A stretch of DNA of 32,000 nucleotides from Phycisphaera mikurensis NBRC 102666 (GTDB lineage: Bacteria > Planctomycetota > Phycisphaerae > Phycisphaerales > Phycisphaeraceae), in contig NC_017080.1 in the NCBI RefSeq assembly GCF_000284115.1, forward strand, positions 3,600,001 to 3,632,000. The letters run 5' to 3'. The notes beneath the pieces were generated by a model that was not told the origin of the DNA, searched no databases, and saw only the letters and a list, made by a program, of their open reading frames with translations. Position numbers and translations under genes: made by a program. Positions 1,312 to 30,299 of the stretch are shown piece after piece (the stretch's first letter is position 1; every line of letters begins with the position of its first letter).

Positions 1312-1920
1312 TCACCGCTTCCGCTGGAGCACCAGGTCCCCCGTGCTCCGGTAGGTCAGCAGCAGCGCCCCCGTCGCGGCGGCCGCTTCGAACACCGCTT
1401 CCACCACGGCCTCCTCTCCGGGCCACGGGTAGGCGTAGACGAGGGCGGCGTCCGAGGGATCCAGCCCCAACGCGTCGTGCCCGTCGGCCAGCCCGGTCGC
1501 CAGCGTCGCCAGATCGTCGGCGACGTCCGCGAGGCCGTCGTGCTCGGGCGGGATGAAGCTGCCGTGGGCGAAGGCGACGGCGAGGCCGTGCGACGCGGCG
1601 AGGTCCTCGGCCTCCTCCACGAGCGCGGCTTGGGCCTCGATCCCCGCGGAGTCGAAACCAAGCGTCGCCGCGAGGCATGCGGCGACGCCGACGCCCGAGC
1701 CCCACTCCAAGAAGTTCGAGCCCGGCGCGAGCCGGCCGCCGCGGACCGCGGCAAGCCCGGCGTGCACCCACGCGTAATCCGCGGGCACGAAGGAGCCCAA
1801 GCCTTCGGGATCACGCCGACGGAGGTCGTCGATGCGGGTGTCGGCATCCGCGAGCAGACGCTCCGTGGCGGGTGGGAGCGGTGCCGCGGCCGGAGTGAAA
1901 GGCACCTCGATCAGCGGCAT
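1312..1920 (-). CDS. Small class-I SAM-methyltransferase-fold protein (202 aa), function unknown
   Basis: ATG at 1920 (MPLIEVPF...). ExGxGxG-like motif FLEWGSGVGVAACLAATLGFDSAGIE. High GC3. Same strand as the CsgG-like and flagellin genes and downstream of them. Confidence 0.45.
   Translation of the reverse strand: MPLIEVPFTPAAAPLPPATERLLADADTRIDDLRRRDPEGLGSFVPADYAWVHAGLAAVRGGRLAPGSNFLEWGSGVGVAACLAATLGFDSAGIEAQAALVEEAEDLAASHGLAVAFAHGSFIPPEHDGLADVADDLATLATGLADGHDALGLDPSDAALVYAYPWPGEEAVVEAVFEAAAATGALLLTYRSTGDLVLQRKR
1739..1784. repeat. 46-bp symmetric element, degenerate copy (left arm perfect, right arm 7/10)
   Basis: ccgcggaccg-N26-taatccgcgg, inside the methyltransferase-fold ORF. Confidence 0.5.
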
Positions 1921-1955
1921 CGGCGGACGCTCCGGATCCGCCCCGGGGGCGGGGT

Positions 1956-3005
1956 TCAGCGGCTGAGCCGGACGATCGTGCCCGTGGCGGGCAGGTCGCC
2001 GCCACCGACGACCTCGGCGTAGGACATCTTCTCGGCGACCCGGACGATCCTGATCTCGCCGAGCTCGGCACCCTCGGTCGTGCCCAGGATCTCGCCGGTG
2101 CCCGGATCGGTGATCTCCACGCCGGGCTCGACCAGCGCGTACGTGCCGCCGGCCTTGAGGTTGTGGTCCGAGCCGCGGTTGATGACGACCTGCCCGTTGA
2201 TCTCGCTGACGACCAGGCCGGTGTTGGGCAGCTCCTCCATCTGCAGCGCGATGAAGCGGGCGGCCTGGTTGAGTGCGTCCTGCACGGCTTCGCTCATCGG
2301 CGTCTTCGCAAAGCTGCCCATGTTCGTGTTGACGCCGAAGCGGTTCATGCCCACCCGCAGCTTGCTGCTGCCGGCTTTGCCGGTGATCGATTCCTTCGCC
2401 ACGATGGCGCCGCTGGTCGTGTCGACGAGCTTCACGATCAGATTGATCTGCGCGTTGCTCTGCCCGCCGCCCACGCGGAAGCCGCGGAAGCCGATGCCGC
2501 CGTCCTGGCCGCTCTGGTTGCCCTCCACGCCGGTGACCTCGCCGGTGGCGAGGTAGCGGGCCGGCCGCAGCTTGCCGGTCTGCGCCACCTCGGTGGCGGC
2601 GGCCGTGCGGCCGCTGTCCGCGAGGTCCTGCTCGAGCACGACGTCGGCGAGGTTCTCCCGCTCGACCAGGACGAAGCGCCCGGTGTCGAAGAGCGCGCTC
2701 TCGAACATCAGCGGGAAGTTGCGGTCCATGCTGTAGGTGCGCCAGCCCGCCCAGTTGGAGCGGTTGTCGAAGTCCACCACGCCGATCGCGTGCTTGACCC
2801 CGGCGTAGGGCGGGAGCGCGTCCCCGTCCTCGGCGAGCTGCTCGGCATCGGGCTTGTCGTCCACCCGCGTGCCCTCGGATTCGAAGGGGTTGTACGCCGC
2901 GACGCTTTCGCAGCCCGGGGCGGCGGCGAGGCCGAGCAGGCACAGGAAGGCCAGGCCCGGGGCGAGGCGGGAAGGCGAAGGGACACGCGGGTGCGAGAGA
3001 GGCAT
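1956..3005 (-). CDS. CsgG/HfaB-family outer-membrane lipoprotein with extra C-terminal beta-rich domain (349 aa)
   Basis: Signal peptide ending in Cys (LLGLAAAPGCES). CsgG-type motifs IGVVDFDNRS, RFVLVERENLADVVLEQDLADSG and ARYLATGEVTGVE. ATG at 3003-3005. Confidence 0.7.
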   Translation of the reverse strand: MPLSHPRVPSPSRLAPGLAFLCLLGLAAAPGCESVAAYNPFESEGTRVDDKPDAEQLAEDGDALPPYAGVKHAIGVVDFDNRSNWAGWRTYSMDRNFPLMFESALFDTGRFVLVERENLADVVLEQDLADSGRTAAATEVAQTGKLRPARYLATGEVTGVEGNQSGQDGGIGFRGFRVGGGQSNAQINLIVKLVDTTSGAIVAKESITGKAGSSKLRVGMNRFGVNTNMGSFAKTPMSEAVQDALNQAARFIALQMEELPNTGLVVSEINGQVVINRGSDHNLKAGGTYALVEPGVEITDPGTGEILGTTEGAELGEIRIVRVAEKMSYAEVVGGGDLPATGTIVRLSR

Positions 3006-3165
3006 CGTCGACTCCAGAGGGAAGATTCCGGTGCGGCGGAGCCCCCCGATGGCGGCCCCAGCACCCGTTGTAACACGGCTCCGCCGCGGGAGCGGCGCGC
3101 AGCGGAAGGCTCCGGACCAACGGCCGGAGCGATGAAGCGGATCCGTTTCGCCGCCGCCGCGTCGA

Positions 3166-4659: not shown

Positions 4660-4822
4660 GCGAGGGCTCCTTGCGGGGGTGATGCGGCCCCTGGGCTGGG
4701 GGGCGGGGTGGCTTCCTGCCAAAAGAGTGAGCGGGTCTGTCAACCGAGCCGCGTGGGTGCCGTTTCTTCGGGTCGTGCGGCCGGTGGGGGTTACGCCGAT
4801 GCGGGAGGCCCCTTATCGGCCC

Positions 4823-4830: not shown

Positions 4831-4902
4831 GAGGCGGCGGGCCGGCCGCCGGAGCGGCCTCTAGCGTCGGCCATCGAGAGCTTCCCGCCCGCTGCGCCCG
4901 CC

Positions 4903-7900
4903 TTGCTTGCCCCCTTCCGCAGCCATGCCGCCCCACGCGCAGCCGTGCGGGCGTTTGCGGAGGCGGATCCGGCCGCCGTGGCCGTCGCCGGCCCCACCGG
5001 CGTGACCACGACGCTGCTCGCCGCGGCCGCCGCGCTCGCTCACCCCGGGCCGGTGCTGCTCGTGACGGCTTTCGAGGACCAGGCTCAAGCGGCCACGGCC
5101 GACCTCCTGAACCTCGCCCGCGGGAGCGACGAGTCTGGAATCGGCGGCGCGGGCGACACGCACCTGGTGGTGGCTCCCTTCGACGCGTTGGGCCCACGCG
5201 ACCTGCTGGGCGCCCGGGCCGAGGGCCCGCTGGTTCGGCGGGTGGTGCTCGCCGCGACGCTGGACCACGGGGCCACCGGTCGGCAGGACGCGGAGGGCCT
5301 CGCCGCGAACGCGGGCCGCTGGGTGATCGTCGCCTCCGTCGCCGCGCTGCTGCAGGCGGTGCCGACCGAGGCGGTGGTCGCCGGCGCCGTGCGGCGGATC
5401 CACCCGGGGGATGCCGTGGACCTCCCCGCGCTCGTCGGCCTCTTGGAGGCCACCGGGCACCGGGCCGCGAGAGCCGAAGCGGTCGCCGCCGGGACCTTCC
5501 ACGCCGGGGGGTCCACCCTCCGCTTCCGCCCGCTGGGTGCGATCGCCACCGACGACGCCGGCCGCGCCTCCACCGCGGCGCGGGCGGCGGTCGTGGTCGG
5601 CTTCGAGGAGAACCGCATCGCGTCCATCCGCTTCGCCGACCCGCCGACGGAGGCCTGGAACCGCCCGCTGGCCGCGATCACGCTCGCGACACCGGATGCG
5701 AAGCGCGTGCTGCAGCGGGCATCGACCCGCTGCCTGCTCGACCTGCTGCCGGCCCGCACCGGCGTCGTGCTCGACGACGCCGAGGCGATCGCGCTCGAGG
5801 CCGCCCGGCTGGGCCGCCGCGCCGCGGGCGGCGGTGGCGACCTCACGCCCGCCGAGCTGGACGAGCGGCTCGCCGCCCGCCCGGTCGTCCGGGTCGACCT
5901 GCAGCCCGCGGCGGAGGCCGCCCTCCGCCTCGACGCCGGGCGCCCAAGCCCCTTCCCGCTCCACGCCGACGCGGCGGGCCGGGAGCTCGCGGCGAGGAGC
6001 CGAGACCGCCGCGTGCTCGTCGTGAGCGACCGGCCCGACGACCCGCGGCTGGCCGATCGGCTCTCCGAAGCCCCCGAAGCCCGCTTGATGCGGGGGCTTC
6101 TCTCCGAAGGGTTCCGGCTGCGGGGCGAGGACGGCTTCGAGGCGGTGCCCGGCCACGAGCTGCTCGGCGTGCCCGCACCGCCCGGAGCCGCGGTCGAGGA
6201 CCCCGCCGCCGACGGCGCGCCCGACTCCGGCACCCTCGGCTCCGTCCTCGTCTCGCTGGAACCCGGCGACCCGCTCGTCCACGCCGAGCACGGCGTCGCC
6301 CTGTACGAGGGGATGGAGCCGATCGAGATCGGCATCGGCAGCCGCCGGACGACCATCGACCACCTGACGCTCGCCTTCGCCGAGCCCGACACGCTCCGCG
6401 TGCCCGCCGACCAGGCCGCCCGGGTCTTCCCCTTCCACGCCGCCGACGACGCCCCCACGCCCGACCCGCTCAACAGCCGGGCCTGGGCGAAGAAGCTTTC
6501 TGCCGCCGAAGCCGCCGCCAGCGCCTTCGTGCGGGCGCAGCGCCGGGCCGCCGCCGAGGCCGCCGACCGGCCCGGCCGCGCCCACCCGCCCGAGCCCGAC
6601 CGGCTCCGCGCCTTCGAGGCCGACTTCCCCTTCGAGCCCACGCCCGACCAGGCCGAGGCGTTCGCCGCCGTCGCCGCGGACCTCGAAGCCGAGATCCCGA
6701 TGGACCGGCTGGTCTGCGGCGACGTCGGCTTCGGCAAGACCGAGGTGGCCGCCCGGGCGATCTTCCGCGTCGTCCGCCCGCGGCGGCGGGGCGGCCGCCG
6801 TGGGCACCAGGCCGTCCTGCTCGCGCCGACCACCGTGCTCGCCGAGCAGCACGGCCGGAGCCTCGCCGAACGCCTCGGCCCGCACGGCGTGTCGGTCGGC
6901 GTGCTCTCGCGGCTGCGTCCGGCGGACGAGCAGAAGCAGCTGAAAGCCGGCCTCGCCGGCGGCACGCTCGACCTGCTCATCGGCACGACGGCGCTGCTCG
7001 GCGAGGGGATCGAGCCCGACGACCTCGGCCTCGTGGTCATCGACGAGGAGCACCGCTTCGGCAGCGGCGACAAGGAGGCCCTGCGGCGGCTGCGGGACGG
7101 CGTGGACACGCTCGCCCTCACCGCCACGCCGATCCCGCGCACGCTGCACACCGCGCTCGCCGGGCTCCGCGCTGTCTCCACGCTGCGGACGCCGCCGGCA
7201 GGACGCAGAGCCGTCGTCACCGAGGTGCTGCCCGCCGAGGACGGCCGCCCGCGCGTCCGCACCGCCCTCTCGCGCGAGCTTGCCCGCGGCGGGCAGGCCT
7301 TCGTCGTCCACAACCGCGTGGAGGGCCTCGCCGAGGCGGCCGAGGAGGTGCGGGACCTGCTCGGCGGCGTGACCCGCCCCGACAGGAGCACCCCCGTCGT
7401 CGCCTCCGCCCACGGCCAGCTCCGCGAGGAAGAGCTCGAGGACGCGTTGCTCGCTTTCACCGCCGGCGACACCGACGTGCTCGTCTGCACGACGATCGTC
7501 GAGAACGGCCTCGACGTCGCCCGCGCCGGCACCATCGTCGTCGAGGGCGCCGACCGCTTCGGCCTCGCCTCGCTGCACCAGCTGCGCGGCCGGGTCGGTC
7601 GCTCGGGCCGGCGGGGTTTCTGCCTGCTGGAGGTCCCGAAGAACGCCCGGCTGAGCGAGGGGGCGCAGAAGCGTCTGGCCGCGATGGAAGACGCGGACGG
7701 CCTCGGCGCCGGCTTCGCCATCGCGGAGGCCGACCTGGCCCTCCGCGGCGCCGGAGACCTGCTCGGGGACGAGCAGTCCGGGCACGTCGCCGCCGTCGGC
7801 CACGCCCTCTACAGCCGACTCCTCCAGCGGGCCGCTCGCGAGCAGGCCGGCGACCTCCGCCCCGCCCCGGAGCGCACCGGCCACGCGCTGCCCAACACCG

Positions 7901-8334
7901 GCAACCTGCCCGCGGCCTGGATCCCGCCCTCGCTGCCCCGGCTCAACGCCTACCGCTGGCTCACCCACGTGGACGACGAGGACCAGCTCGGCGTCGCGGT
8001 CGCGCACCTCACCCGCACCTGGGGCGAACCGCCGGAGCAAGCGAGGCGTTTCGTCGCCGGGGTGCGGCTGCGCCTGGCCATGGCCGACGCCGGCGTGCTG
8101 CACGCGGCCAAGAGCAAGAAGGGCATCACCCTCACGCTCGCCCTCCCGCCGGCCCGGGACGAGCACGAGGCTCACCGCGGCTCGGCCGTCGAGCAGCTCA
8201 ACGCGAACCTGGACAAGCCCCGCTTCCGCGCCGGCGTCGGGGCGGACGAGCTGCTCTACACCCCGCCGCCGGAGGTGGAGGACGCGGGGCTGGTGGAGCA
8301 CCTCACCGGGGTGCTCGCGGGCGGTGCTTCGTAG
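4903..8334 (+). CDS. mfd: Transcription-repair coupling factor Mfd
   Basis: RNAP-interaction domain [19 protein letters not shown]. Helicase motifs [29 protein letters not shown] and [11 protein letters not shown]. The start is uncertain: the ORF opens at GTG 4708, but codons 4708-4860 have poor GC3 and overlap the fliC leader. In-frame TTG 4903 or GTG 4945 fit better. Confidence 0.85.
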
Positions 8335-8503
8335 GTCGAGGCGACCCCCTCGGCGTGCCGCCGCAGGCGGCTGTGCGACGCGCCGCTGTCGTGTGCGCAT
8401 CGGGCGACCTCCACGCCGGATCCGCGGCGCGGAGCCGCGTCGGGGCGGTGGCCCCGGCCGACGGTCCTTGACGAGCCTCGGAGCATGCTGTGATCTCTAC
8501 GCG

Positions 8504-9949
8504 ATGACCGCCACCGCGCTGCTCACCGACCTCTATCAGCTCGGCATGGCGCAGGGATACTGGAAGCTCGGCCGCGCCGACCAGCCGGCGGTCTTCCACC
8601 TCTTCTTCCGCGAGGCACCGTTCGGCGGAGGCTTCGCGATCGCGGCGGGCCTCGGGCCGGTGCTCGATCTGCTCCGCGGCTTCGCGTTCACCGCGGACGA
8701 CACCGACCACCTCGCCCGCATCCCCGGCGGCGACGGGCGGCCGCTCTTCGAGGCCGCGTTCCTGGCCTACCTCCGCGACCTCCGGCTGACGATCGACCTC
8801 GACGCCCTGCCGGAGGGCACCGCGTGCTTCGCCCACGCCCCGCTGCTGCGGGTCCGAGGGCCGCTGCTCCAGTGCCAGCTGCTCGAGACGGCGCTGCTGA
8901 ACGCGTTGAACTTCCAGACGCTGGTCGCCACCAAGGCGGCCCGGGTGAGAGACGCGGCCGGTGGAGACACCGTGCTGGAGTTCGGCCTCCGCCGGGCGCA
9001 GGGCACCGACGGCGCGCTGGCCGCGAGCCGGGCGGCGTACCTCGGCGGCGTCGACGCGACCAGCAACGTGGCGGCGGGCAAGGCGTACGGCATCCCGGTG
9101 AAGGGCACGCAGGCCCACAGCTGGGTGATGAGCTTCGAAACCGAGCGCGAAGCTTTCGCGGCCTGGGCCGACACCGCACCCAACAACGGCGTCTTCCTCG
9201 TCGACACCTACGACAGCCTCGCCGGCGTCGACCACGCGATCGAGGCCGGGCGGAGGCTGCGGGGAAAGGGGCACCGCCTCGGCGGCGTCCGGCTCGACTC
9301 GGGAGACCTCGCCTGGCTCAGCCGCGAGGCCCGCAGAAGGCTCGACGCCGCCGGCTTCCCCGAGGCGCAGGTCGTCGCGAGCAACGACCTCGACGAGCAC
9401 GTCATCCGCGACCTGAGGAGCCAGGGCGCCGCCATCGACGTCTGGGGCGTCGGCACACAGCTCGTCACCGCCCACGACCAGCCGGCCCTCGGCGGCGTCT
9501 ACAAGCTCGCCGCCATCCGCGACGCGGGAAGCGGCTGCTGGATCCCGAAGGTCAAGCTCAGCGAGACCACCGCCAAGACGAGCCTGCCGGGGATCCTGCA
9601 GGTCCGCCGCTACGACACCGCCGCGGGTGGTCGCGCCGCCGCCGACCAGCTCTGGAGCGAGCTCGACGGCGAGCCGAGGACGCGCGAGCTGATCGACCCG
9701 ACCGACCCGATCCGCCGACGCACGATCGCCGCGGACCGCGGCTGGAAAGACCTCCTGGAGCCCGCGGTCCGCGGCGGCGTGGTCGTCTTCCCGGACGAGC
9801 CGCTGGCCGCCGCCCGCGACCGGGCGCGGGCCGAGCGGTCCAGGCTGGACCCGACGGTGCGCCGGCTCGTGAAGCCGCACCGCTACCCGGTCGGCGTCAC
9901 GCCCGAGGTTCTCGCGCTGCGCCAACGCCTGATCGAGGCGGCCCGCTGA
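8504..9949 (+). CDS. pncB: Nicotinate phosphoribosyltransferase
   Basis: [21 protein letters not shown]-terminus, [17 protein letters not shown] and RLDSGDL motifs. ATG at 8504. Confidence 0.85.
9729..9774. repeat. 46-bp symmetric element CCGCGGACCG-N26-CGGTCCGCGG (arms extend to 13 bp)
   Basis: Perfect arms, inside pncB. Confidence 0.85.
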
Positions 9950-12174: not shown

Positions 12175-13734
<1,560 letters not shown>

Positions 13735-13739
13735 TCACC

Positions 13740-16380: not shown

Positions 16381-16426
16381 CCGCGGACCGCCGGCGCCGG
16401 TCGCCGTTACGCCCCGCGGTCCGCGG
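16381..16426. repeat. 46-bp symmetric element CCGCGGACCG-N26-CGGTCCGCGG
   Basis: Perfect arms. Intergenic, 13 nt downstream of the GH20 stop. Confidence 0.85.
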
Positions 16427-16439: not shown

Positions 16440-18200
16440 TTAGAAGTTCCCGCTGGTCCGCACGGCGCCCGCGTCGGCTCCGGTCACCCGCAGCGGCTTC
16501 TCCAGCTTCCGCACCGAGTCCTCCAGCCCGCCGGGCCGCGACCGGATCGCCCACAGCGCCCGGTGCTCGGCCGCGAGCCCCTCGAGCTCGGCCCGCATCG
16601 CCGGGCCCGCGCCGGCGTCGCCGCCGCGCAGCCGCTCGCCGGCACGCCGGCAGGACCACCGCGCCAGCGCCGCCGAGAAGGCGGCCTCGCGGACCAGCAG
16701 CGCCGCCTCCTCCGTCCGCGTCTCGACGGATCCGAGCCGGCCGAGCACCGCGTCCAGCGCCGCCTCGCCCGCGTCGGTGTCCGCCGTCGACAGCCGCGCG
16801 AGCGGCTCCTCCGCGATCGGCAGCTCCGGCGCGTGCAGGAAGCGGAACCACCACGTCGCGTTGTGCCAGCGTGCGTCGCTGCTCTCGTAGGCGTTGGCGA
16901 GGTCCCAGAGGATGGCGCCAAGCCCGGGATCTTCCTCGTCGGCGGCCACGCGGGAGATCGCGCGGGGCAGGGCGTCGGTGTCGCCGTTGGTCCGGAGGCA
17001 CCACGCGACGCCGGAGCCGAAGACCAGCCCGACCCACGACACCGCCTGCGTCTGCCAGTGGCCGTGGTCGCCCCACTCGGTGTTGAGGTAGCCCTCGGCG
17101 CCGAAGCGGATGCCGGCCTCGGCGGCGTCCCGCTGGTTGTCGGTGGCGTTGCGGCCGCGGCCGGTGAGCGAGCACCACGACGACGTGCCGGGGCAGACGT
17201 AGAAGCGGACACCCGCTTGCTGGAACCGCTCGCTCTCGGGGGCGAAGCTCTTGATCGACTCGTAGTTCCAGTTCACCAGCACGCCCTCGGGCGGCAGCTC
17301 TGCGATCAGCTCGGGGTGGTTGAGCACGATGTCGCCGAAGTAGATCGGCGTCTTGCCCCGCTCGCTCACGCGGGCGCAGAGCCGCTTGAGGTACCCGAGG
17401 TAGACGTGAGCCTTGCCTTCTCTCTCGCAGGCTTCCTTGCTCTTGCCCTGGCCGAGGTCGAAGGTTTCGTCGCAGCCGATGTTGAAGAGCGTGGCGTCGG
17501 ACGCGGCGCACAGCTGGTCGATGAGGTCGGCCGACAGCTCGAAGGCCTCCGGCAGGACCGGCGCCAGCGAGCAGGTGCCCGGCCGCCAGCCCCAGGGGCT
17601 CTCGAAGCCCTCGTCCACCTCCGCGAGGTGGTGGTACGCCGGCAGGTCGAGCCAGCGCTCCATGTGGCCGAACAGGTTCTGGCAGGGGACCAGCTCGATG
17701 AAGTGCTCGCGGCAGAGGCGCTGGATCTCGCCGAGCTCCTCGAAGGTGAAAGGCGAGGCGTCCTTCCACGCGGGCTCGTGGCCGGCGTAGCGGATCGTGT
17801 GCTCGGTGTAGAGCTCCAGGTGGTTCACGCGGAGCCGGCCGAGGCGTGGGATCAGCGTGTCGCGGAGGAACGCCATCGACGGCACCCGGTCGCGGCTGCA
17901 GTCGAGCATGTAGCCGCGGACGGCGAGGTCGGGGTGGTCCACGATCTCGCCGCAGGGCAGGCGCTGCGGCGCGCCCAGCCGCAGCTGCCGCAGCGCCTCG
18001 CGGCCGTAGAAGAGGCCCGCTTCGTCGTGCGCGACCAGATCGACGCCGTCGCCGCGGACCGTGAGCCGGAAGCTCTCTTTTCGCCCGCGGTCCGCGGGGT
18101 CGACCCGCTCGCTCACCGGGGCGTCGGCGGCGGCGGTGCCCTCGGCGGCGGTGACCGATTGCGGCGCGGGAAAGAGGAACAGGTCGGGGAGGTTCAGCAT
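16440..18200 (-). CDS. Glycoside hydrolase family 20-like (beta-N-acetylhexosaminidase-like) protein
   Basis: IVDHPDLAVRGYMLDCSRDRVPS...LRVNHLELYTEH, FNIGCDETFDLGQG and NTEWGDHGHWQ. No obvious signal peptide. Confidence 0.65.
   Translation of the reverse strand: MLNLPDLFLFPAPQSVTAAEGTAAADAPVSERVDPADRGRKESFRLTVRGDGVDLVAHDEAGLFYGREALRQLRLGAPQRLPCGEIVDHPDLAVRGYMLDCSRDRVPSMAFLRDTLIPRLGRLRVNHLELYTEHTIRYAGHEPAWKDASPFTFEELGEIQRLCREHFIELVPCQNLFGHMERWLDLPAYHHLAEVDEGFESPWGWRPGTCSLAPVLPEAFELSADLIDQLCAASDATLFNIGCDETFDLGQGKSKEACEREGKAHVYLGYLKRLCARVSERGKTPIYFGDIVLNHPELIAELPPEGVLVNWNYESIKSFAPESERFQQAGVRFYVCPGTSSWCSLTGRGRNATDNQRDAAEAGIRFGAEGYLNTEWGDHGHWQTQAVSWVGLVFGSGVAWCLRTNGDTDALPRAISRVAADEEDPGLGAILWDLANAYESSDARWHNATWWFRFLHAPELPIAEEPLARLSTADTDAGEAALDAVLGRLGSVETRTEEAALLVREAAFSAALARWSCRRAGERLRGGDAGAGPAMRAELEGLAAEHRALWAIRSRPGGLEDSVRKLEKPLRVTGADAGAVRTSGNF
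18052..18097. repeat. 46-bp symmetric element CCGCGGACCG-N26-CGGTCCGCGG
   Basis: Perfect arms, inside the GH20-like ORF. Confidence 0.85.
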
Positions 18201-18292
18201 GGGACCGGGACCGGATCGGGTGTCGGCCGTGCGAGCCTAGAGGGAGCCGGCACGCTCTCCCGGTGCGGGACGCGCTGCTTTACGCTGCGCCG

Positions 18293-19954: not shown

Positions 19955-20093
19955 GCGAAGGCCACCGCCCCGGCCTGCCGCCGACGGCGGCGGCGTCGAC
20001 CGTGCACGCTCGGAAGACGTGCGGACTTCGCTGCGCCTCCACGCTGAAGCCCTCCGGGCTCCACGCCGCGGCGGTGGTCCCCACCGACCGGAG

Positions 20094-20139
20094 CCGCGGA
20101 CCGTCGGCGTTTCGGAGCGCAAGACGCGACGGTCCGCGG
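20094..20139. terminator. 46-bp symmetric element (13-bp perfect stem CCGCGGACCGTCG / CGACGGTCCGCGG); candidate bidirectional terminator
   Basis: Lies between convergent ade (stop 19954) and uraH (stop 20142-20144). No U-tract. Confidence 0.55.
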
Positions 20140-20141
20140 AC

Positions 20142-20459
20142 TCAGGAGCCGCGGTAGCTCGAGAAGCCGAAGGGCGACACCAGCAGCGGGACGTGGTGGT
20201 GGGACGCGGGGTCGGTGACCTCGAACCGCACCTCCACGGAGGGGTAGAAGCACGGCCGCCCGGAGAGCGCGAAGTACGCGGCGGTCTCGAAGCGGAGCAC
20301 GAAGACGCCGGCACCGACCGCGGGAAGCTCGCCGTAGCGGCCGTCGGCGTTGGTGGTTCCCTCGGCGAGCACGGCGCCGTCGGCGTCGCGGAGCCGCAGC
20401 GACATCCCGGCGGCGGGCACGCCGAGGGCGGTGTCGAGCACGTGGGTGGAGAGGCTCAC
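20142..20459 (-). CDS. uraH: 5-hydroxyisourate hydrolase (transthyretin-like)
   Basis: LSTHVLDTALGVPAAG N-terminus and diagnostic C-terminal YRGS. The GTG start overlaps the upstream gene's stop (GTGA). Confidence 0.88.
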   Translation of the reverse strand: MSLSTHVLDTALGVPAAGMSLRLRDADGAVLAEGTTNADGRYGELPAVGAGVFVLRFETAAYFALSGRPCFYPSVEVRFEVTDPASHHHVPLLVSPFGFSSYRGS

Positions 20460-21343: not shown

Positions 21344-21462
21344 CGGCCGAGGCTACGGGGAAGCGGGAGAGAGCGAGAGAAAGAAAGATTGACAGAGAGG
21401 CACAGTTCCAGGCGGCCTTGCCGCGGCCGCCGGAGGCGGCACTTGCTGACTTCCTCTCTTCC

Positions 21463-22008
21463 TCACTCTCTCACTTCTGCGCTTGCTCCTTCCCCGTGCT
21501 CCGCCGTCAACAGCTTCGCGATCCGCAGCGCCGTGATCTTCCGCTGCTCCGCCGCGGCGACGGCGGCTTCCTTCTCCGGGGCGTTCCGCTGGCGGCGGAC
21601 GCAGGCGACGAGCATCTCGTCGGCGGTCCTGCCGGTGGCGCAGACGATGAAGGGCCAGCCGAACCTCGCCTCGTAGTTGGCGTTCTCCTCGGCCATGGCG
21701 GCTCTGGCCTCGGCGTCGGCGTCGCTCATGCCGGCCTGCTCACCCGCGGACCACTCTCGGTTGCCCGCGGACCGTGAGCGCTCGGAGCCGGGACGCTCGC
21801 CGATCCGCGGGTGGGCTTCGAAGGCTTCGAGCCAGTGGCCTTCCCCCATCGCCTCGAAGATCATCCCCGCCGCCTCGTGCAGTTCCGCGAGCGAGCGGAA
21901 GGGCCGCGAGGCGGCCATCTGCTGCGCCCACCAGCGCGTGCCGCAGCAGGCCAGGAAGGCGGCGGTGGCGTCGGTTTCGCGCAGGGCGTTCAGGTCGTTG
22001 AGCGTCAT
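21463..22008 (-). CDS. uraD: OHCU decarboxylase (2-oxo-4-hydroxy-4-carboxy-5-ureidoimidazoline decarboxylase)
   Basis: FEAHPRIGE motif and WPFIVCATGRTADEM. The ATG overlaps the allB stop (ATGA). Confidence 0.85.
   Translation of the reverse strand: MTLNDLNALRETDATAAFLACCGTRWWAQQMAASRPFRSLAELHEAAGMIFEAMGEGHWLEAFEAHPRIGERPGSERSRSAGNREWSAGEQAGMSDADAEARAAMAEENANYEARFGWPFIVCATGRTADEMLVACVRRQRNAPEKEAAVAAAEQRKITALRIAKLLTAEHGEGASAEVRE
21765..21810. repeat. 46-bp symmetric element, right arm 9/10 (CGATCCGCGG)
   Basis: Inside uraD. The variant arm encodes the conserved PRI of the HPRIGE motif. Confidence 0.7.
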
Positions 22009-23315: not shown

Positions 23316-23364
23316 GCGTCTACGTTACGACCGGCCTGCGCGAGTTCCTTTCAGTCGATCCACC

Positions 23365-24225
23365 ATGCACACGCTGACCCATTCGACCCACGGCAAGTCG
23401 CGCGTGCGGGTGTCCAAGATCCTGCGGCCGCGTGAGAAGCCCGCCGTGGAGGAGACGCACCGGTTCCTCGAAGCGGCCGTGGAGGTGCTTCTCGAGGGAG
23501 GCACCGACGCCGCCTACACCGACGGCGACAACGCGAACGTCGTCGCCACCGACACGGTGAAGAACACCGTCTTCGCGCTCGCCCGCGACACCGATTACGA
23601 CGACCTGCCCACGTTCGGCCGCGTTTTGGCGAACCACTTCCTCTCCCGCTACGAGCACGTGACCAAGGTGACCGTCGCGATGGAAGGCCACACCTGGCAC
23701 CGGCTGCTCGACTGCCCGCACGCCTTCACCGGCAGCGACGCCGAGGCGCGACGGGTGACGGTCGTCGCCGAACGCGGGCAGCCACTCCGCCTGGCCGACG
23801 GCTTCGGCGGGCTGATGCTCGCGAAGACCACCGCAACCTCCTTCGAGAACTTCCACCGCGACGCGTACCGCACGCTGCCCGACGCCGCCGATCGCGTGCT
23901 CGCCACGGTGCTCACCGCGAGCTGGGCCGTCAACGGATCCGCGGACCGCGACGACTTCGACGCCGTTTTCGCCACGGTCCGCGGCGCGCTGCTCACCGCC
24001 TTCGTCGACCACCACAGCGTGAGCGTCCAGGCGACGCTCTACCGCATGGCGTCGGCCGCGCTGGACGCGACGGACGCCATCGACGCCGTCACGATGTCGA
24101 TGCCCAACAAGCACCACCTGCCGGTCGATCTCTCGAAGCTCGACCGCGAGAACGACAACGTGGTGTTCCAGGTGACCGACGAGCCGGCGGGGGCGATCCA
24201 GGCGACGGTGACGCGGGGGCGGTGA
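23365..24225 (+). CDS. uox: Urate oxidase (cofactor-independent uricase)
   Basis: HGKSRVRVSKI, NVVATDTVKNTVFALA, SVSVQATLYRM and SMPNKHHLPVDL. Confidence 0.88.
   Translation: MHTLTHSTHGKSRVRVSKILRPREKPAVEETHRFLEAAVEVLLEGGTDAAYTDGDNANVVATDTVKNTVFALARDTDYDDLPTFGRVLANHFLSRYEHVTKVTVAMEGHTWHRLLDCPHAFTGSDAEARRVTVVAERGQPLRLADGFGGLMLAKTTATSFENFHRDAYRTLPDAADRVLATVLTASWAVNGSADRDDFDAVFATVRGALLTAFVDHHSVSVQATLYRMASAALDATDAIDAVTMSMPNKHHLPVDLSKLDRENDNVVFQVTDEPAGAIQATVTRGR
23939..23984. repeat. 46-bp symmetric element CCGCGGACCG-N26-CGGTCCGCGG
   Basis: Perfect arms, inside the uricase ORF. Confidence 0.85.
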
Positions 24226-24234
24226 GGCGGTGCG

Positions 24235-24942: not shown

Positions 24943-25060
24943 GATCCCAGCGTACGCGGCAACCCAGCGGCTTCGACCTGGATCTTGGACTTCTCTGCAT
25001 CGGCTGCCCTCGGCGACACGTGGCGAAGCGCAGAGCGCGGCGGCGGCGTTCGCATCTCAT

Positions 25061-25220
25061 CTAGAGCATCGTGCGCAATTTTCCGATCGGCCTGCGTCCG
25101 CGCGTCGTGTTCCTCGTGAGGAGGCGAAGCAGCCCTGCCCCTGCAGGGCGATGCAGCCGACGAAGCGAGGGGCACGACTCGCCCGCAGAGGCGATCGGAA
25201 GCTAGCGCACGGTGCGCTAG
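25061..25220 (+). mobile_element. 160-bp MITE-like long-palindrome repeat, copy 2
   Basis: CTAG at both ends. Right TIR partly degenerate (GGAAGCTAGCGCAC versus GGAAAATTGCGCGC). The IS element abuts its right CTAG. Confidence 0.8.
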
Positions 25221-26651
25221 CAGGCCGCTGCAGAACCCTGTCCATCGCGCTAACTTCTGAGGCTTCTTCCTCAGGAGCCTTCTCATGCGTGGCCGCGTCG
25301 CTTCCTCGTCCCCGATGTTCTTCGCGATCGACCTCGAAGAACGCATCCGCCCCGACCACCCGCTGCGGCCGATTCGCCGGATCGTCGACCGCATCCTCGG
25401 CGACATGACCGCCGACTTCGACGCGGCCTACGCCGACGTGGGCCGCCCAGGTGTCCCGCCTGAGCGGCTGCTCAAGCTCATGCTCTTGCAGGCGCTCTAC
25501 GGCGTCTCCAGCGAAGCCAAGCTCTTCGACCGCCTCGACACCGACCTGGTGTTCCGGTGGTTCTGCGGCATGGACCCCGCCGAGCCGGTCCCCGCCGCCA
25601 CCGCCTTCACCCACAACCGCGACCGGCTGATCAAGCACAAGCTCGCCGAGAAGTTCTTCACCGCCGTCACCAAGCTGGCCATCGACACGGGCAAGGTCTC
25701 CACCGAGCACTTCAGCGTCGACGGCACGCTCATCGAGAGCCACGGCTCCATCAAGAGCTTCGTGCCCAACGCCACCGCCGATGCCGCTCAAGCCCGCAAG
25801 CAGCACTGCGGCGGCGACGATCAGGACCACGACAAGGGTCCCGGCGGCACCGGTGGCTTCAAGAGCCGCAACCCCGAGCAAGACTTCCACGGCCAGAAGC
25901 GCAGCAACGCCACGCACCGCAGCGTGACCGATCCGGAGGCCAAGCTCTACCGCAAGGGCGACGGCCAGCCCGCCAAGCTCTCGCACATGGGCCACCTGCT
26001 GGTGGACAACCGCAGCGGCATCATCGTGGGGATGAAGCTCTCCGAGGCCAACGGCTTCGCCGAGCGGGAGACGGCCCTGGAACTGGTCGACACGCTCAAG
26101 ACGACCCACGGGATCAGCGCCCGCACGGTCGGAGCCGACGCCGGCTACGACGCCGGCGCGTTTCTTCGCGAGCTCGAAGACCGGGGGGCGACCCCGCACG
26201 TTGCCCCCAGCCGCGAGCGTCGGCCCGGCGGGCGGAGGGGGCCGAAGAAGGCGGACCGGCCGAAACTGGCGGCCAGGCTCCGCAACTTCCGGCGGAAGCT
26301 GCGGGACCGCGGCTACGCGATCAGCCAGCGGAAACGCAAGAAAGTGGAGGAGCCGTTTGGCTGGTTGAAGAGCCACGCACTCTTGAGCAAGGCGCGTCTG
26401 GTGGGTCGAGAGCGGATCCAACAGCAGTGGCACATCGCCGCGGCGGGGCTGACGCTGGTGAGGCTGAGGAACCTGATGGCGGCGTAGAGGCCGATGGCTG
26501 GATCGGTGGGTGATCCCACCGTGCTGCCGCCGTTCGAGCGGCTGAAAATCCCCCGACGATGCGGCGGATCACCCGCCGCTGGCCGACGAATTCGCAGACA
26601 ACCCCCGTGCCTCAAGCCAACGATCCGGCAGTGGGTTTCTGCAGCGGCCTG
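25221..26651 (+). mobile_element. IS5/IS1182-like insertion sequence (1431 bp) with 4-bp CTAG target duplication
   Basis: IRL CAGGCCGCTGCAGAACCC (25221-) versus IRR reverse complement CAGGCCGCTGCAGAAACCC (-26651). Flanking CTAG at 25217-25220 and 26652-26655. Single intact transposase ORF. Confidence 0.85.
25285..26487 (+). CDS. DDE transposase, IS5/IS1182-like (InsH-type N-terminal domain)
   Basis: IRPDHPLRPIRRIVD...PPERLLKLMLLQALYGVSSEAKL, HFSVDGTLIES, VGADAGYDAG and KVEEPFGWLK. An alternative start exists at Met11 (25315). Confidence 0.85.
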   Translation: MRGRVASSSPMFFAIDLEERIRPDHPLRPIRRIVDRILGDMTADFDAAYADVGRPGVPPERLLKLMLLQALYGVSSEAKLFDRLDTDLVFRWFCGMDPAEPVPAATAFTHNRDRLIKHKLAEKFFTAVTKLAIDTGKVSTEHFSVDGTLIESHGSIKSFVPNATADAAQARKQHCGGDDQDHDKGPGGTGGFKSRNPEQDFHGQKRSNATHRSVTDPEAKLYRKGDGQPAKLSHMGHLLVDNRSGIIVGMKLSEANGFAERETALELVDTLKTTHGISARTVGADAGYDAGAFLRELEDRGATPHVAPSRERRPGGRRGPKKADRPKLAARLRNFRRKLRDRGYAISQRKRKKVEEPFGWLKSHALLSKARLVGRERIQQQWHIAAAGLTLVRLRNLMAA

Positions 26652-26689
26652 CTAGCCCCGTCAGATGCTCCTGCGCCGGCGGGAGTCGG

Positions 26690-27967: not shown

Positions 27968-28737
27968 GCCATCACGTCCCGGTTGACGTTCTTGCAGTAG
28001 AGGTAGGTCGCCGGTTCCGGCCCCATCGCCACGAACCACTGCGGGCAGAAGGGGGCCATCCAGATCGCGTCGCCCGCCTGCACCGGGTACCAGGACTCGG
28101 TGGGGCCGGCGCCCAGCCGGTAGACGCCGCGGCCGTGCTGCATGAAGAGGCCGTGCTCGTTGTGGTGGCTCTCCACCAGCGGGAGCGCGACGCCGGGATC
28201 GAAGGAGAAGCGGTTGACCGCGAGGTCGAACGACGCGTCCCCGGGCAGCAGCGTCTGCAGCCGGGCACCCGGGTCGCCCAGGAAGGGCTCGGCCGGCGTG
28301 TCGTCGGCGTGGCCGTGCAGGAGGCCCGGCGCGGCGACGCCCTCCGAAGCGGCGTACGCCTTCTCGAAGATCAGCACGCGGGCGGATTCCGCGACCGCCA
28401 TCTCCACCCGCTCGCCCGCGGGCAGGTACGCCCACGAATCGGCGGTCAAGCCCGTCCCTTCCACCGACAGCCCGCCCGCGAGCACGTAGACGACGCGCTC
28501 GCGGCCGTGGCCCCGCGTCGCGAGGCGCGCGCCGCCGCCGAGCGTCGCGACCGCCATCGTGAAGCCGGGCCCGCGGCCCATCGCTCCCATGGCCGGGCTG
28601 ATCAACACCGCGCCCTCGGCGGCTTCCCACCCGTGCAGCGGAGCCGTGACGTGCGTGTCCTCCGCGACGAGCGCGTGGTCCGCGGCAACGACCGTCCGCG
28701 TGTGCCCGAGGGGGTGCGTCGTCGAGTGCTCGGGCAT
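27964..28737 (-). CDS. allE: (S)-ureidoglycine aminohydrolase (bicupin, YlbA/AllE type)
   Basis: VESHHNEHGLFMQHGRGVYRL, GDAIWMAPFCPQWF and YLYCKNVNRD. Confidence 0.8.
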   Translation of the reverse strand: MPEHSTTHPLGHTRTVVAADHALVAEDTHVTAPLHGWEAAEGAVLISPAMGAMGRGPGFTMAVATLGGGARLATRGHGRERVVYVLAGGLSVEGTGLTADSWAYLPAGERVEMAVAESARVLIFEKAYAASEGVAAPGLLHGHADDTPAEPFLGDPGARLQTLLPGDASFDLAVNRFSFDPGVALPLVESHHNEHGLFMQHGRGVYRLGAGPTESWYPVQAGDAIWMAPFCPQWFVAMGPEPATYLYCKNVNRDVMA

Positions 28738-28787
28738 CGGCCGCAATGTAGAGCCGGCGGGTGGCGGCGAGGCCACCAACGCCGGGA

Positions 28788-28833
28788 TCGCGGACCGCGG
28801 CGGTTCGGGCCGCTGCGCGGCCGCGGTCCGCGG
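28788..28833. repeat. 46-bp symmetric element, left arm 9/10 (TCGCGGACCG)
   Basis: Intergenic, between MITE copy 3 and the allE start (28737). Confidence 0.7.
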
Positions 28834-28874
28834 GCGGGCTCGCGCCGCACCGCCCCGGCCTCTTGGCCGCCGGG

Positions 28875-29034
28875 CTGGAGCATCGTGCGCAATCTCCCGA
28901 TCGGCCTGCGTCCGCGCGTCGTGTTCCTCGTGAGGAGGCGAAGCAGCCCTGCCCCTGCAGGGCGATGCAGCCGACGTAGCGAGGGGCACGACTCGCCCGC
29001 AGAGGCGATCGGAAAATTGCGCGCGGTGCGCTAG
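28875..29034 (+). mobile_element. 160-bp MITE-like long-palindrome repeat, copy 3
   Basis: Bounded by CTGG and CTAG. The right CTAG contains the TAG stop codon (29031-29033, minus strand) of the upstream M20 gene. Sits inside a co-directional gene string. Confidence 0.8.
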
Positions 29035-30299
29035 CGCCGCGGATCGTCCGGAGCCGCCAAGCGCTTCATCAGCCGCACCAGGAGCTCCACGGCGACGGCG
29101 ACGTCGGCCACGTCGGCGGCTTCGTCCAGGTGGTGGGAGATCCCGCCGGGGTGGCGGAGGAACAGCAGCGCCGCCGGGAACTCAGCCGCCATCACCACGG
29201 CGTCGTGGCCGGCGCCCGAGACCATCGCCGGACCGGCCTGGCCGAGCTCCGCCAGCAACGCCCCGCAGCGGGCGCCGAGCTTCGCGTCCATCTTCACGGC
29301 CGGCTGGTTCTGGTTCTCCTCCACGGTCAGCTCGCAGCCTTCGGCGGCGGCGAGGTCGATCGCCTGCTCCAGCAGCCGGCCGACGGCGGCGACACGCACC
29401 GCGTCCTCGGCGTGGCGGACGTCCATGGAGAGGTCGACGCGGCCGGGCACGACGTTCCGCGTGTTTGGGAGCACGTCCAGCCGCCCCACCGTGGCCTTCA
29501 GTCCGGGCGTGGCGAGGCCCTCGGCACGCACCGCCGCCACCACGCCGGCCGCGGCGAGCAGGGCGTCCTGGCGTTGGTCCATCGGCCGCGTCCCGGCGTG
29601 GGCGGTTCGCCCGGTCAGCCGCACGAGCAGCCGGCTCTGCCCGGCGACCGCGGACACCACGCCCACCGACCGCCCCGCCGCCTCCAGGAGCGGGCCCTGC
29701 TCCAGGTGCGTCTCGACGAAGCCGAGCACGTCTTCGGGCCGGTACGCCGCTTCGGGCAGCAACCGCGGGTTCTGGCCGAAGGCGCGGATCGCGTCTTCCA
29801 TCAGGACGCCCGATCTGTCCGGGCGCGTCAGCAGCTCGTAGTCGAAGGTCCCCGCGACCGCCCGGCTGCCCAGGTACGGCGTCGCGTAACGCACGCCTTC
29901 CTCCTCGCTGAAGGCGACGACGTCGACGTGGAAGGGCAGCGGCTCGCGGCGGCCGAAGGCCTCCACCGCCGCGAGCGCCGCCAGCACGCCGAGGACGCCG
30001 TCGTAGCGGCCGGCGCCGGGCACGGAGTCGATGTGGGAGCCCAGCAGCAGGACCCTCGGCCGGCTCCCATCGAGCGGAGCCGCGGACCGCCGCCCGATCA
30101 GGTTCCCCGCCGCGTCGGTCCGCGGCGCCAGCCCCGCCGACCGCATCCACCCCGCGAGCTTCCCGTGCGCCTCCTTCATCGCCGGGGTCAGGTACCGGCG
30201 GGTGATGCGGTCCTCCTCCTCCGAGCAGGCCGCGATCGCGTCGCAGCGGAGCATGGCCGTCTCGGCGGCGGCGAGAGACTCTGGAGACGGAGCGTGCAC
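29031..30299 (-). CDS. Second M20-family amidohydrolase paralog (ureidoglycolate amidohydrolase or allantoate amidohydrolase candidate)
   Basis: GSHIDSVPGAGRYDGVLGVLAALAA, AFSEEEGVRY, AHAGTRPMDQRQDA and SGAGHDA. Start uncertain: GTG 30299 is preferred and ATG 30254 is possible. TTG 30395 is rejected because it lies in the repeat array. Confidence 0.75.
   Translation of the reverse strand: MHAPSPESLAAAETAMLRCDAIAACSEEEDRITRRYLTPAMKEAHGKLAGWMRSAGLAPRTDAAGNLIGRRSAAPLDGSRPRVLLLGSHIDSVPGAGRYDGVLGVLAALAAVEAFGRREPLPFHVDVVAFSEEEGVRYATPYLGSRAVAGTFDYELLTRPDRSGVLMEDAIRAFGQNPRLLPEAAYRPEDVLGFVETHLEQGPLLEAAGRSVGVVSAVAGQSRLLVRLTGRTAHAGTRPMDQRQDALLAAAGVVAAVRAEGLATPGLKATVGRLDVLPNTRNVVPGRVDLSMDVRHAEDAVRVAAVGRLLEQAIDLAAAEGCELTVEENQNQPAVKMDAKLGARCGALLAELGQAGPAMVSGAGHDAVVMAAEFPAALLFLRHPGGISHHLDEAADVADVAVAVELLVRLMKRLAAPDDPRR
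30080..30125. repeat. 46-bp symmetric element CCGCGGACCG-N26-CGGTCCGCGG
   Basis: Perfect arms, inside the second M20 amidohydrolase ORF. Confidence 0.85.

Follow-up and report, generated by a model that had tools for sequence, protein, structure and literature searches.

The window, that is, the whole stretch of 32,000 nt of Phycisphaera mikurensis (Planctomycetota) DNA that was analysed, carries genes for an Mfd-like helicase, a nicotinate phosphoribosyltransferase, a GH20 protein, a methyltransferase, a 5-hydroxyisourate hydrolase, an OHCU decarboxylase, a uricase, a cupin-domain protein and an M20 amidohydrolase, together with an IS element and a low-GC stretch at 24-28.7 kb. Distributed over this DNA are 46-bp sites of the form CCGCGGACCG-N26-CGGTCCGCGG, of which 6 are perfect, 2 have 1 mismatch and 2 have 3 mismatches. 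The earlier note had listed nine of them. A pattern search reproduced the coordinates of all nine and added one 3-mismatch site, 6674-6719, which had been overlooked. The sites and one accessory arm are given below.

1739..1784: degenerate copy whose 3 mismatches all fall in the right arm (TAATCCGCGG); read in phase 1 of the minus-strand ORF frame 1312..3120, where it encodes PADY...AVRG
6674..6719: site with 3 mismatches in the Mfd-like helicase gene, over a conserved 13-residue region (AADL...LVCG)
9729..9774: perfect copy in the nicotinate phosphoribosyltransferase gene (8324..9949, plus strand), in frame, phase 1, NAPRTase_C domain
16381..16426: perfect copy, intergenic between the GH20 and methyltransferase genes, 13 nt past the stop of the former and 33 nt ahead of the start of the latter
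18052..18097: perfect copy in the GH20 gene (16440..18200, minus strand), in frame, N-terminal part, PADRGRKESFRLTVRG
20094..20139: perfect intergenic copy between convergent genes, 2 nt past the stop codon of the 5-hydroxyisourate hydrolase gene (20142..20459, minus strand)
21744..21753: extra arm-like 10-mer CCGCGGACCA, plus strand, direct orientation, 21 nt upstream of the left arm of the next copy
21765..21810: copy with 1 mismatch in the OHCU decarboxylase gene (21463..22008, minus strand), in frame, PRIGERPGSERSRSAG
23939..23984: perfect copy in the uricase gene (23365..24225, plus strand), in frame, SADRDDFDAVFATVRG
28788..28833: copy with 1 mismatch, TCGCGGACCG, between the M20 gene stop (29031) and the cupin-domain gene; probably intergenic or in a 5' leader
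30080..30125: perfect copy in the M20 amidohydrolase gene (29031..30395, minus strand), in frame, PRTDAAGNLIGRRSAA

The site at 6674 is either a chance match or one kept short of the motif by protein constraint. A third arm like that at 21744..21753 was also seen in the related loci L187 and L188, at 22 nt. Five of eight window copies lie in frame within genes (NAPRTase, GH20, OHCU decarboxylase, uricase and M20 amidohydrolase). The earlier note had not foreseen that the majority of the window copies are read in frame within conserved genes, having arisen by substitution.

The window was compared with dinucleotide and triplet-block (codon-like) shuffles. The expectation was 0.15 matches at ≤3 mismatches, and 0 of 100 shuffles reached 10. 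With the triplet-block controls, the observed and expected counts were 6 and 0.00 for 0 mismatches, 2 and 0.00 for 1, 0 and 0.00 for 2, and 2 and 0.12 for 3. The mismatch spectrum was bimodal, and from 4 mismatches upward the counts were background. Spacings of 0-120 were scanned with ≤1 mismatch allowed in each arm. N26 gave 8 of the 10 arm pairs and was the only enriched spacing, any other spacing having at most 1 pair. All perfect inverted 10-mer pairs at N26 in the window had the arm CCGCGGACCG. As had been claimed, perfect 10-mer arms never stood unpaired (15 of 15 were within copies), and the 9-mer GGTCCGCGG was counted unpaired 4 times. Solitary CGCGGWCCG cores numbered 1 compared with 6.9 ± 2.7 expected. 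The arm overlaps the palindromes CCGCGG and CGGWCCG; CCGCGG was not depleted outside the copies, and CGGWCCG was depleted in the window (7 vs. 18.7) and not in the related locus L182. No 46-mer copies were found in the IS element of the window or in its low-GC stretch.

The codons that make up the arms are frequent and GC-rich (Ala, Asp, Arg, Val, Gly, Pro, Thr, and Ser), which would suit an origin as a side effect of base composition, of codon usage or of a recurring peptide motif. We give this explanation practically no credence. The GC content measured across the window was 0.67-0.78 (about 0.73, close to the 72% assumed earlier), and both kinds of shuffle yielded 0 sites at ≤2 mismatches. 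Moreover, the copies use all three phases as well as non-coding DNA, and in 120 other high-GC genomes the family was not found and the same two words showed flat spacing. The shuffles and this comparison refute a composition artefact, in agreement with the earlier note. The observation as a whole is a real, fixed-spacing, non-compositional family.

In about 107 kb of P. mikurensis-like sequence, which is less than one genome, 25 copies were counted. This density of about 1 per 4.3 kb is near the 1 per 3.5 kb claimed before; the earlier figure of hundreds to a thousand copies in the genome is an extrapolation. A search of related genomes, which the earlier note had proposed, recovered the same arms with N26 in the related loci L123 (7 pairs), L182 (3), L184 (2), L187 (2), and L188 (3). 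The spacing described as invariant stood as the sole enriched one, except that one copy with perfect arms in L187/L188 had N25. The family also occurred in related metagenome genomes and in one marine metagenome, and was not found in viral contigs. Intergenic copies were enriched about 3-5 fold; four independent ones begin 1-2 nt past a stop codon, often between convergent genes. The view that no described element has this architecture held: Rfam 15 gave 0 matches in the window at gathering score, the literature on the 10-mers consisted of primers only, and a REP survey does not cover Phycisphaera (PMC3733652).

The uricase copy was compared across four genomes. Its arms were identical at 20 of 20 positions, synonymous sites included. 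The arms had no variable column (0/20), compared with 10/26 for the centre and 277/812 for the remainder of the gene (p = 4e-4 for arms against remainder); at third codon positions the counts were 0/6 in the arms and 145/271 elsewhere (p = 0.011). Different residues precede the arms (S/S/A/P; T/T/A/T), but their codons are all of the form NCC or NCG. Likewise, 0/20 arm positions of the M20 copy were variable vs. 223/1181 elsewhere (p = 0.036), and its orthologue in L182, at 14373, has perfect arms. The L123 orthologue (3583) of the intergenic copy 16381 has the same arms and spacing with an unrelated centre and flank indels. Intergenic orthologues in general retained the arms and N26 despite indels, diverged centres and unalignable flanks, and coding copies were conserved to the same degree as intergenic ones. 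These comparisons show that arms and spacing are fixed after a site has formed, while the centre evolves freely. The arms are conserved at orthologous positions beyond coding constraint, as is characteristic of HIP-type iterated palindromes.

As judged from alignments, the four coding copies that were compared with orthologues are not inserted as units. The uricase, M20, and GH20 copies aligned without indels to orthologues, whether or not these have the site, and their centres encode conserved residues. The uricase copy covers D197, F198, and R206, which are invariant across all uricase orthologues, and the M20 copy has no indel relative to its orthologue or to two paralogues (aligned paralogue segment VRVDPMGN.FAR). 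The GH20 copy 18052 is orthologous to the L123 copy at 5247; at the corresponding place in L182 there is no indel, and the arms differ at 10/20 positions (PDAV...TIRP). In the OHCU copy 21765, one arm consists of codons of the conserved HPRIGE motif, its single mismatch being the Ile codon, and the other arm lies in a variable loop with 5 extra codons in this genome. New sites are thereby shown to form in place by point substitution, with an in-frame indel occasionally setting the spacing, and to form in intergenic DNA or in codons already near the motif (ADR...VRG, PRT...RSA). Arms that remain unchanged between species and were made by substitution suggest a putative site read by a protein.

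A profile was built from 49 independent copies. The earlier description of the centres as unrelated stood insofar as between-copy similarity was near background; it missed a weak dyad-symmetric consensus, with A at -1 and Y11 S12 G13 C14 C15. Positions 18-19 were 66-70% AT compared with 25% in the background, and the core at 21-26 was GC-rich. AT-rich positions fell at -1, 7, 18-19, 28-29, 40, and 48, symmetric about the dyad with a mean step of about 9.8 bp. The flank profile was also dyad-symmetric (c-g-r-A-b), and it contained no direct repeats or target-site duplication and no one-sided GTAG or CGTC tag.

Among the three candidate roles raised in the earlier note, a two-half-site protein target fits best, and the other two were weighed together with a mobile origin. 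The arms may instead form a hairpin in single-stranded nucleic acid, that is, a 10-13 bp G+C stem in a transcript or in replication ssDNA, which would serve as a REP-like 3'-end protector, a terminator lacking a U-tract or a processing signal whose stem is read by a factor. We consider this fairly unlikely. Every copy in the window gave a fold of -26 to -36 kcal/mol in which the arms form the stem, the centres scored slightly better in folding than centre-only shuffles (mean z -0.8, p = 1e-4), and pair 11:36 covaries weakly (C-G 16, T-A 17, T-G 10, C-A 7). Gene ends and the gaps between convergent genes are enriched for copies, several of which begin 1-2 nt past a stop, and palindromic arms would function with transcription from either strand. 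However, a stem needs no single sequence, yet the same 10-mer recurs everywhere; an exact 26-nt loop is unnecessary, yet N26 is kept amid indel-rich intergenic divergence. The centres carry only 1-3 extra pairs beyond the arms, the arms have no compensatory variation, and no nested covariation was found deeper than pair 11:36, so the hairpin or cruciform role proposed earlier gained weak support. A conserved stem with a variable loop also inverts the usual pattern of RNA-protein recognition, the copies are not followed by a T-run (T ≤ 0.30 at the first position of the flank and less after it), no Rfam match exists in the window, and coding copies are conserved no less than intergenic ones. A Rho-independent terminator was rejected, given the missing U-tract and the location of 5/8 copies inside genes. 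It is less probable still that the 46-mer is a self-DNA uptake or recombination signal spread by molecular drive rather than organismal selection, with motif-bearing fragments preferentially taken up or recombined as for the Haemophilus USS and Neisseria DUS. USS and DUS lie within coding sequence in frames that tolerate them and are concentrated at gene ends, frequently in inverted pairs. The 46-mer shares with them a roughly kilobase-scale density, genus-level specificity and hyper-abundance in coding and non-coding DNA. Its construction by substitution in tolerant codons, with near-matches at 6674 and 21765 that would be protein-constrained, its conservation at orthologous positions and its absence from the IS element, the low-GC stretch and viral contigs agree with drive. 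Against this, USS/DUS cores are asymmetric 9-12-mers that suffice singly, and DUS pairs in inverted orientation lack a long spacer of fixed length, whereas the 46-mer is bipartite and palindromic, requires 20 positions and an exact spacer, and shows a deficit of solitary cores and no lone arms. Intermediates with 4-6 mismatches are not in excess, and we know of no report of natural competence for Phycisphaerae. HIP1 (Highly Iterated Palindrome 1, GCGATCGC) of cyanobacteria is likewise a hyper-abundant, clade-specific palindromic word, genic and intergenic, that arises by substitution and whose function was obscure for decades. It is over-represented and under selection according to two reports (PMC5861425; PMC4390886), and a preprint states that it raises transformation efficiency in a cyanobacterium (10.1101/2024.09.10.611283). 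A comparable drive has recently been put forward for HIP1. HIP1 differs in being a single 8-bp palindrome linked to orphan methyltransferases, while the 46-mer has two inverted 10-bp words with an obligatory, unconserved 26-bp spacer and its single words do not accumulate.

A MITE or REP/REPIN with terminal inverted repeats of 10-13 bp, copied by a transposase (e.g., RAYT, Y1/HUH) and with drifted centres, is very improbable. Constant length, inverted termini, many copies, intergenic enrichment and a weak full-length consensus would all be expected of such an element, and in L123 a Y1_Tnp gene (5786..6472) has a copy on either side, one perfect (5247) and one with 2 mismatches (6582). REPs are short, palindromic and of high copy number too; they lie mostly at gene 3' ends and between convergent genes, some abutting stop codons or within ORFs (PMC3733652). 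But insertion of the coding copies is largely refuted by the lack of indels and the conserved residues in the centres. REPs arrive by insertion as whole units; their hairpin is conserved, they bear a tag (GTAG or CGTC), and they have a cognate RAYT gene. The 46-mer has unconserved centres, no tag and no cognate RAYT found, no P. mikurensis protein being among the best 120 homologues of the L123 Y1_Tnp. That gene is bracketed by different repeats of its own (GGTCCGAAACGGGGAC), which were not found in the window. The TIRs of the window IS are unrelated to the arms. Although the arms are TIR-like, the inversely symmetric flanks without target-site duplication and the near-background similarity of the centres also separate the family from MITEs. 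The Rickettsia palindromic elements are, as described in the REP survey, palindromic repeats in frame within functional genes (PMC3733652), a likeness to the 46-mer; they are insertions of 100-150 bp that add a peptide segment, unlike the 46-mer, which adds no sequence save the 5-codon length difference in one variable loop.

We therefore return to the two-half-site reading and favour it tentatively, with somewhat less than even confidence: the 46-mer would be a selectively maintained duplex DNA site for a symmetric binding protein with a genome-wide role. It resembles HIP1 or uptake sequences in its manner of evolution, but its architecture would be new. In this proposal, a lineage-specific double-stranded recognition site, kept by selection or sequence-specific drive, would consist of two inverted half-sites with the core CCGCGGACCG, weakly extended to A-N-CCGCGGACCG-Y-S-G and exactly 26 bp apart. 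The putative reader would be a two-fold symmetric protein oligomer that touches both half-sites and tolerates any spacer, and the spacer is probably bent, because the AT-rich patches are symmetric about the dyad. In favour of this reading, one 10-bp sequence recurs at independent loci beyond mere complementarity, and the spacing is fixed while the centre is free. The duplex rather than a hairpin would be what is recognised. Since the sites are placed without regard to gene boundaries, at roughly one per 4 kb, the role may be chromosome organisation, self-marking or a DNA transaction signal rather than gene regulation. CIRCE (TTAGCACTC-N9-GAGTGCTAA) similarly has inverted conserved arms and an unconserved spacer of fixed length, and inverted-repeat operators of this kind are bound by a symmetric protein; such operators are short-spaced, located in promoters and present in a handful per genome, in contrast to the N26 and promoter-blind placement of the 46-mer. 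A transcription-factor operator was rejected on account of the coding, post-stop and convergent-gene positions and the density. Several points speak against a duplex-protein site. Ten contiguous invariant bp per half-site would be unusually stringent, a half-site separation of 36 bp (about 3.4 turns) sets the two arm cores on different sides of the helix in DNA that is neither bent nor wrapped, placement at gene ends and between convergent genes is typical of transcript-end hairpins, and the folding of the centres and the 11:36 covariation count weakly in the same direction.

In a broader and more doubtful formulation, which we regard as possible, the 46-mers may be the cis-acting sites of an undescribed genome-wide DNA-reading system in Phycisphaerae, with about a thousand sites by extrapolation. 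To our knowledge there is no analogue among parS, matS, SlmA/Noc sites, Chi, KOPS, USS/DUS, and HIP1. If this is true, these bacteria would possess a chromosome-organising or self-recognition machine with long, two-part, dyad-symmetric sites, under a pressure strong enough to rewrite codons in conserved enzymes.

The motif consists of the arms CCGCGGACCG and CGGTCCGCGG, inverted and separated by a 26-nt spacer (N26). A pattern search of the window recovered all nine copies that an earlier note had read by eye, each at the position given there, together with one additional site.

Copies of the 46-mer in the window (start; arms; location)
9729; perfect; in NAPRTase_C
16381; perfect
18052; perfect; in the GH20 N-terminal region
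20094; perfect
23939; perfect; in uricase (gene 23365..24225)
30080; perfect; in an M20 amidohydrolase
21765; one mismatch; in OHCU decarboxylase
28788; one mismatch
1739; three mismatches
6674; three mismatches, absent from the earlier list; overlying a conserved segment of Mfd

At a GC content of ~0.73, dinucleotide-preserving shuffles gave 0.15 expected motif matches in the window. Against triplet-block shuffles the mismatch spectrum was bimodal, with observed/expected counts of 6/0, 2/0, 0/0 and 2/0.12 at zero to three mismatches, and from four mismatches upward the counts were at background. As had been claimed, no perfect arm was unpaired (15 of 15 perfect 10-mers sat within copies), and the 9-mer GGTCCGCGG occurred unpaired four times. 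Solitary arm cores were scarcer than expected (1 versus 6.9 ± 2.7). When spacings of 0-120 were scanned with one mismatch tolerated per arm, 8 pairs were found at N26 and at most one at every other spacing; all perfect inverted 10-mer pairs at N26 were made of this one arm. The proposed invariance of the spacing thus holds in the window, where N26 alone was enriched, but not throughout the family, since one copy with perfect arms in L187 and L188, loci of related genomes, is N25. In both of the pairs 16381/18052 and 20094/21765, the starts of the two copies differ by exactly 1671 bp, with unrelated genes between, which is probably a coincidence.

The uricase encoded in the window was 100% identical to that of Phycisphaera mikurensis. 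The same five copies were present in the NCBI draft contig L121 and in a Logan assembly, which excludes an artefact of a single assembly. A planted or assembly artefact was ruled out, as the uricase protein with the element recurred verbatim in both of these assemblies and the family also occurred in several ENA metagenome assemblies.

Across 49 independent copies, the arms were essentially invariant and the remainder was weakly and symmetrically patterned. Outside the arms the consensus was A at -1 (0.55), non-A at 0, Y11, S12, G13 (0.76), C14 and C15; positions 18-19 were 66-70% AT compared with a background of 25%, and positions 21-26 formed a GC-rich core. The description of the centres as unrelated is therefore nearly right, but it misses this weak dyad-symmetric pattern. 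A one-sided orientation tag (GAAT) was ruled out, because PWM-based orientation reached no asymmetric model and the flank preference was symmetric. In L187 (9787-9863) and L188 (9194-9270), a further arm, directly oriented, is found 22 nt upstream of the left arm of the N25 pair, and a similar one lies 21 nt upstream of the left arm of copy 21765 (window 21744-21810); 21-22 nt equals two helical turns. Of the four copies with two or three mismatches, three had two changes at symmetry-related positions (8/39 in copy 6582 of the related locus L123, 10/37 in window copy 6674, and 7/40 in copy 2406 of the more distant L185), a sample too small to interpret; among these three, only 7/40 retained complementarity (A-T to G-C).

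The copies were placed relative to genes using the L121 gene calls, a GC3 frame plot and Pfam. Five of the eight window copies with at most one mismatch lie in-frame within genes, where phase 1 copies encode xADR-x8-xVRG and phase 0 copies PRT...RSA. Over the loci with good gene calls, ~8 of 19 copies were deep in coding sequence and the others were at gene ends or intergenic, an enrichment there of roughly 3-5 fold. Four independent intergenic copies begin 1-2 nt past a stop codon, and several of these lie between convergent genes. The window also contains a complete cluster for purine/urate degradation.

Window 16440-30395: adenine deaminase, 5-hydroxyisourate hydrolase, alpha/beta hydrolase, OHCU decarboxylase, allantoinase, uricase, two M20 amidohydrolases and a cupin protein

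Synteny of this cluster extends to L182-L186. Next to uricase there is always a Uma2-family endonuclease gene, which in L184 is present in three tandem copies.

Insertion as a unit was excluded in all four copies that could be compared with orthologues. Compared with orthologues as low as 56% in identity, the uricase copy had no indel; its centre encodes the invariant D197, F198 and R206. The centre of the M20 copy aligned indel-free to one orthologue and two paralogues. The site orthologous to the GH20 copy in the related genome L182 was empty, of equal length and with 10/20 arm mismatches. In OHCU decarboxylase, one arm forms the codons of the conserved HPRIGE motif, with the Ile codon as its sole mismatch; the second arm falls within a variable loop, and the five extra codons that this genome has there set the spacing.

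The arms are constrained as DNA. In four genomes the uricase arms were 20/20 identical and the centre was as variable as the remaining gene; variable columns numbered 0/20 in the arms, 10/26 in the centre and 277/812 in the remainder (Fisher p = 4e-4). At third codon positions, the arms had 0/6 variable sites versus 145/271 (p = 0.011). Although the residue before each arm varies (S/S/A/P and T/T/A/T), its codons are always NCC or NCG, which preserves the DNA but not the amino acid. In L185 (69% identity), the uricase site has 3 mismatches. The M20 arms likewise showed 0/20 variable columns versus 223/1181 elsewhere (p = 0.036). Intergenic orthologues retained the arms and N26, with altered centres, flanks and stop-codon distances.

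Related metagenome-assembled genomes carry the same family. L123, with a uricase gene of 88% nucleotide identity, has six perfect copies and one with two mismatches in 20.9 kb; L182 (uricase 76% identical in amino acids) has three copies and L184 (78%) two. Two independent loci, L187 and L188, were reached through paralogues of an unrelated gene, Uma2, which has a single close copy in P. mikurensis, and contain two and three copies, respectively. The window and related loci together hold 25 copies in ~107 kb, or one per 4.3 kb. Several of the statistics given here come from few loci, some reached via a gene that itself carries a copy. By extrapolation, the whole genome would hold roughly 900 copies. 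Among 241 million metagenome records scanned for exact N26 matches, only 53 stretches were found, mostly from one marine metagenome project, and viral contigs gave no N26 copies. As background, 120 other high-GC genomes outside Phycisphaera were scanned at N11-41, and the two words occurred there at flat spacing, with N26 accounting for 3 of ~130 among the matches listed. A general property of high-GC genomes was ruled out, since the matches listed were single and of flat spacing. Since metagenome matches were few, viral contigs had none and spacing was flat in other high-GC genomes, the N26 family is clade-specific. One perfect N26 copy each was also seen in metagenome contigs of far lower GC, L131 (0.39), L158 (0.45) and L147 (0.57); the L131 copy has a third arm-like word, CCGGTCTGCGG, within its centre. 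In another contig, L140, the intergenic stretch 700-900 holds two 46-mers and inverted tandem heptamer-like repeats, CGAAGGCA / TGCCTTCG.

GGWCC outside copies was moderately depleted relative to triplet-block shuffles in three loci (94 versus 140 in the window, 71 versus 94 in L123, 88 versus 113 in L182), and CCGCGG was somewhat enriched. This bias may come from a restriction-modification system or from junction dinucleotide effects. Restriction-site avoidance was not supported, as the counts of CCGCGG, CGGWCCG and GGWCC disagree between loci.

A mobile REP or MITE origin of the copies is contradicted by several observations: the coding copies are not insertions, target duplications were absent, and the two mobile systems encountered here have ends of their own.

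L123 5590-5750 and 6480-6570: repeats bracketing a Y1_Tnp gene (RAYT-like, 228 aa)
Window 25216-26656: IS5/IS1182-type insertion sequence, transposase gene 25285..26487 (DUF772 + DDE_Tnp_1)
Window 25061-25089 / 25192-25220: inverted repeat of 29 nt with 83% complementarity, its halves 102 nt apart, just upstream of the IS left end

The L123 Y1_Tnp gene is flanked by another short repeat, GGTCCGAAACGGGGAC, in tandem and inverted copies, which rules out a link to the 46-mer, and none of the best 120 matches of its product was a close homologue from P. mikurensis. It looks like a separate REP/RAYT system of the related MAG; no GGTCCGAAACGGGGAC repeats were found in the window. The heptamer CGGTCCG is common to this repeat and the 46-mer arm. 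The IS in the window has 23-bp terminal inverted repeats, GCTAGCAGGCCGCTGCAGAACCC, which are unrelated to the 46-mer, so a link to this element was also ruled out. It sits in a lower-GC stretch (0.67-0.69) without any 46-mer. Its collapse into solo contigs of ~1.5 kb in short-read assemblies marks it as multi-copy.

The chief competing explanation is a hairpin that would act in transcripts or ssDNA. Every copy is able to form a stem from its arms (-26 to -36 kcal/mol), and the enrichment at gene ends, the adjoining stop codons and a small extension of the stem speak for it, as does the covariation at 11:36 (z = 3.5; C-G 16, T-A 17, T-G 10, C-A 7). Nested-pair covariation was confined to that pair. 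With only the centre shuffled, MFE z averaged -0.8 (p = 1e-4) and was similar in coding and non-coding copies. Long stems occur in individual copies from database contigs (19 bp in L142; also L166 and L150), and Rfam gave no match in the window. An extended compensatory hairpin in the centres was ruled out, as column-wise tests were empty beyond 11:36 and the mean z was just -0.8. Moreover, a hairpin leaves both the fixed stem sequence and the fixed loop length unexplained.

Four lines of sequence evidence agree: one particular 10-bp word has arisen anew at many independent loci, its spacing is exact and has outlasted indel-rich divergence, the centre is free to vary, and constraint extends to synonymous sites. 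All four would be predicted if the 46-mer were a recognition site in duplex DNA whose two half-sites are bound by a symmetric protein oligomer. Bending of the DNA is suggested by the symmetrically placed AT-rich patches, whose mean step is ~9.8 bp when the A/T of each arm is counted. The sites disregard promoters as well as gene boundaries and return about every 4 kb, so a genome-wide role is more likely than the regulation of particular genes; such a role could lie in architecture, in self-marking, or in signalling for a DNA transaction or for uptake. The evolutionary behavior of the motif resembles that of HIP1 (PMC5861425, PMC4390886), but the architecture differs. The same likeness and difference apply to USS/DUS. 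No description of the motif turned up in literature searches, and those with the 10-mers gave nothing relevant.

The hyper-abundant words Chi, KOPS, USS/DUS and HIP1 each led to a major DNA transaction. Compared with them, this motif is longer and more structured, with 20 fixed positions and an exact 26-bp free spacer, and its pressure suffices to restrict both synonymous sites and amino acids in enzymes, uricase among them. Since every base of the site is specified and several genomes conserve it, its putative reader is directly searchable, and the spacing and arm rules supply built-in controls for finding it. The 46-mer also shows that REP-like palindromic families can emerge through convergent substitution instead of transposition. 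Its hosts are poorly studied planctomycetes, a lineage of unusual cell biology in which neither the division machinery nor the organisation of the nucleoid is known to have been explained.
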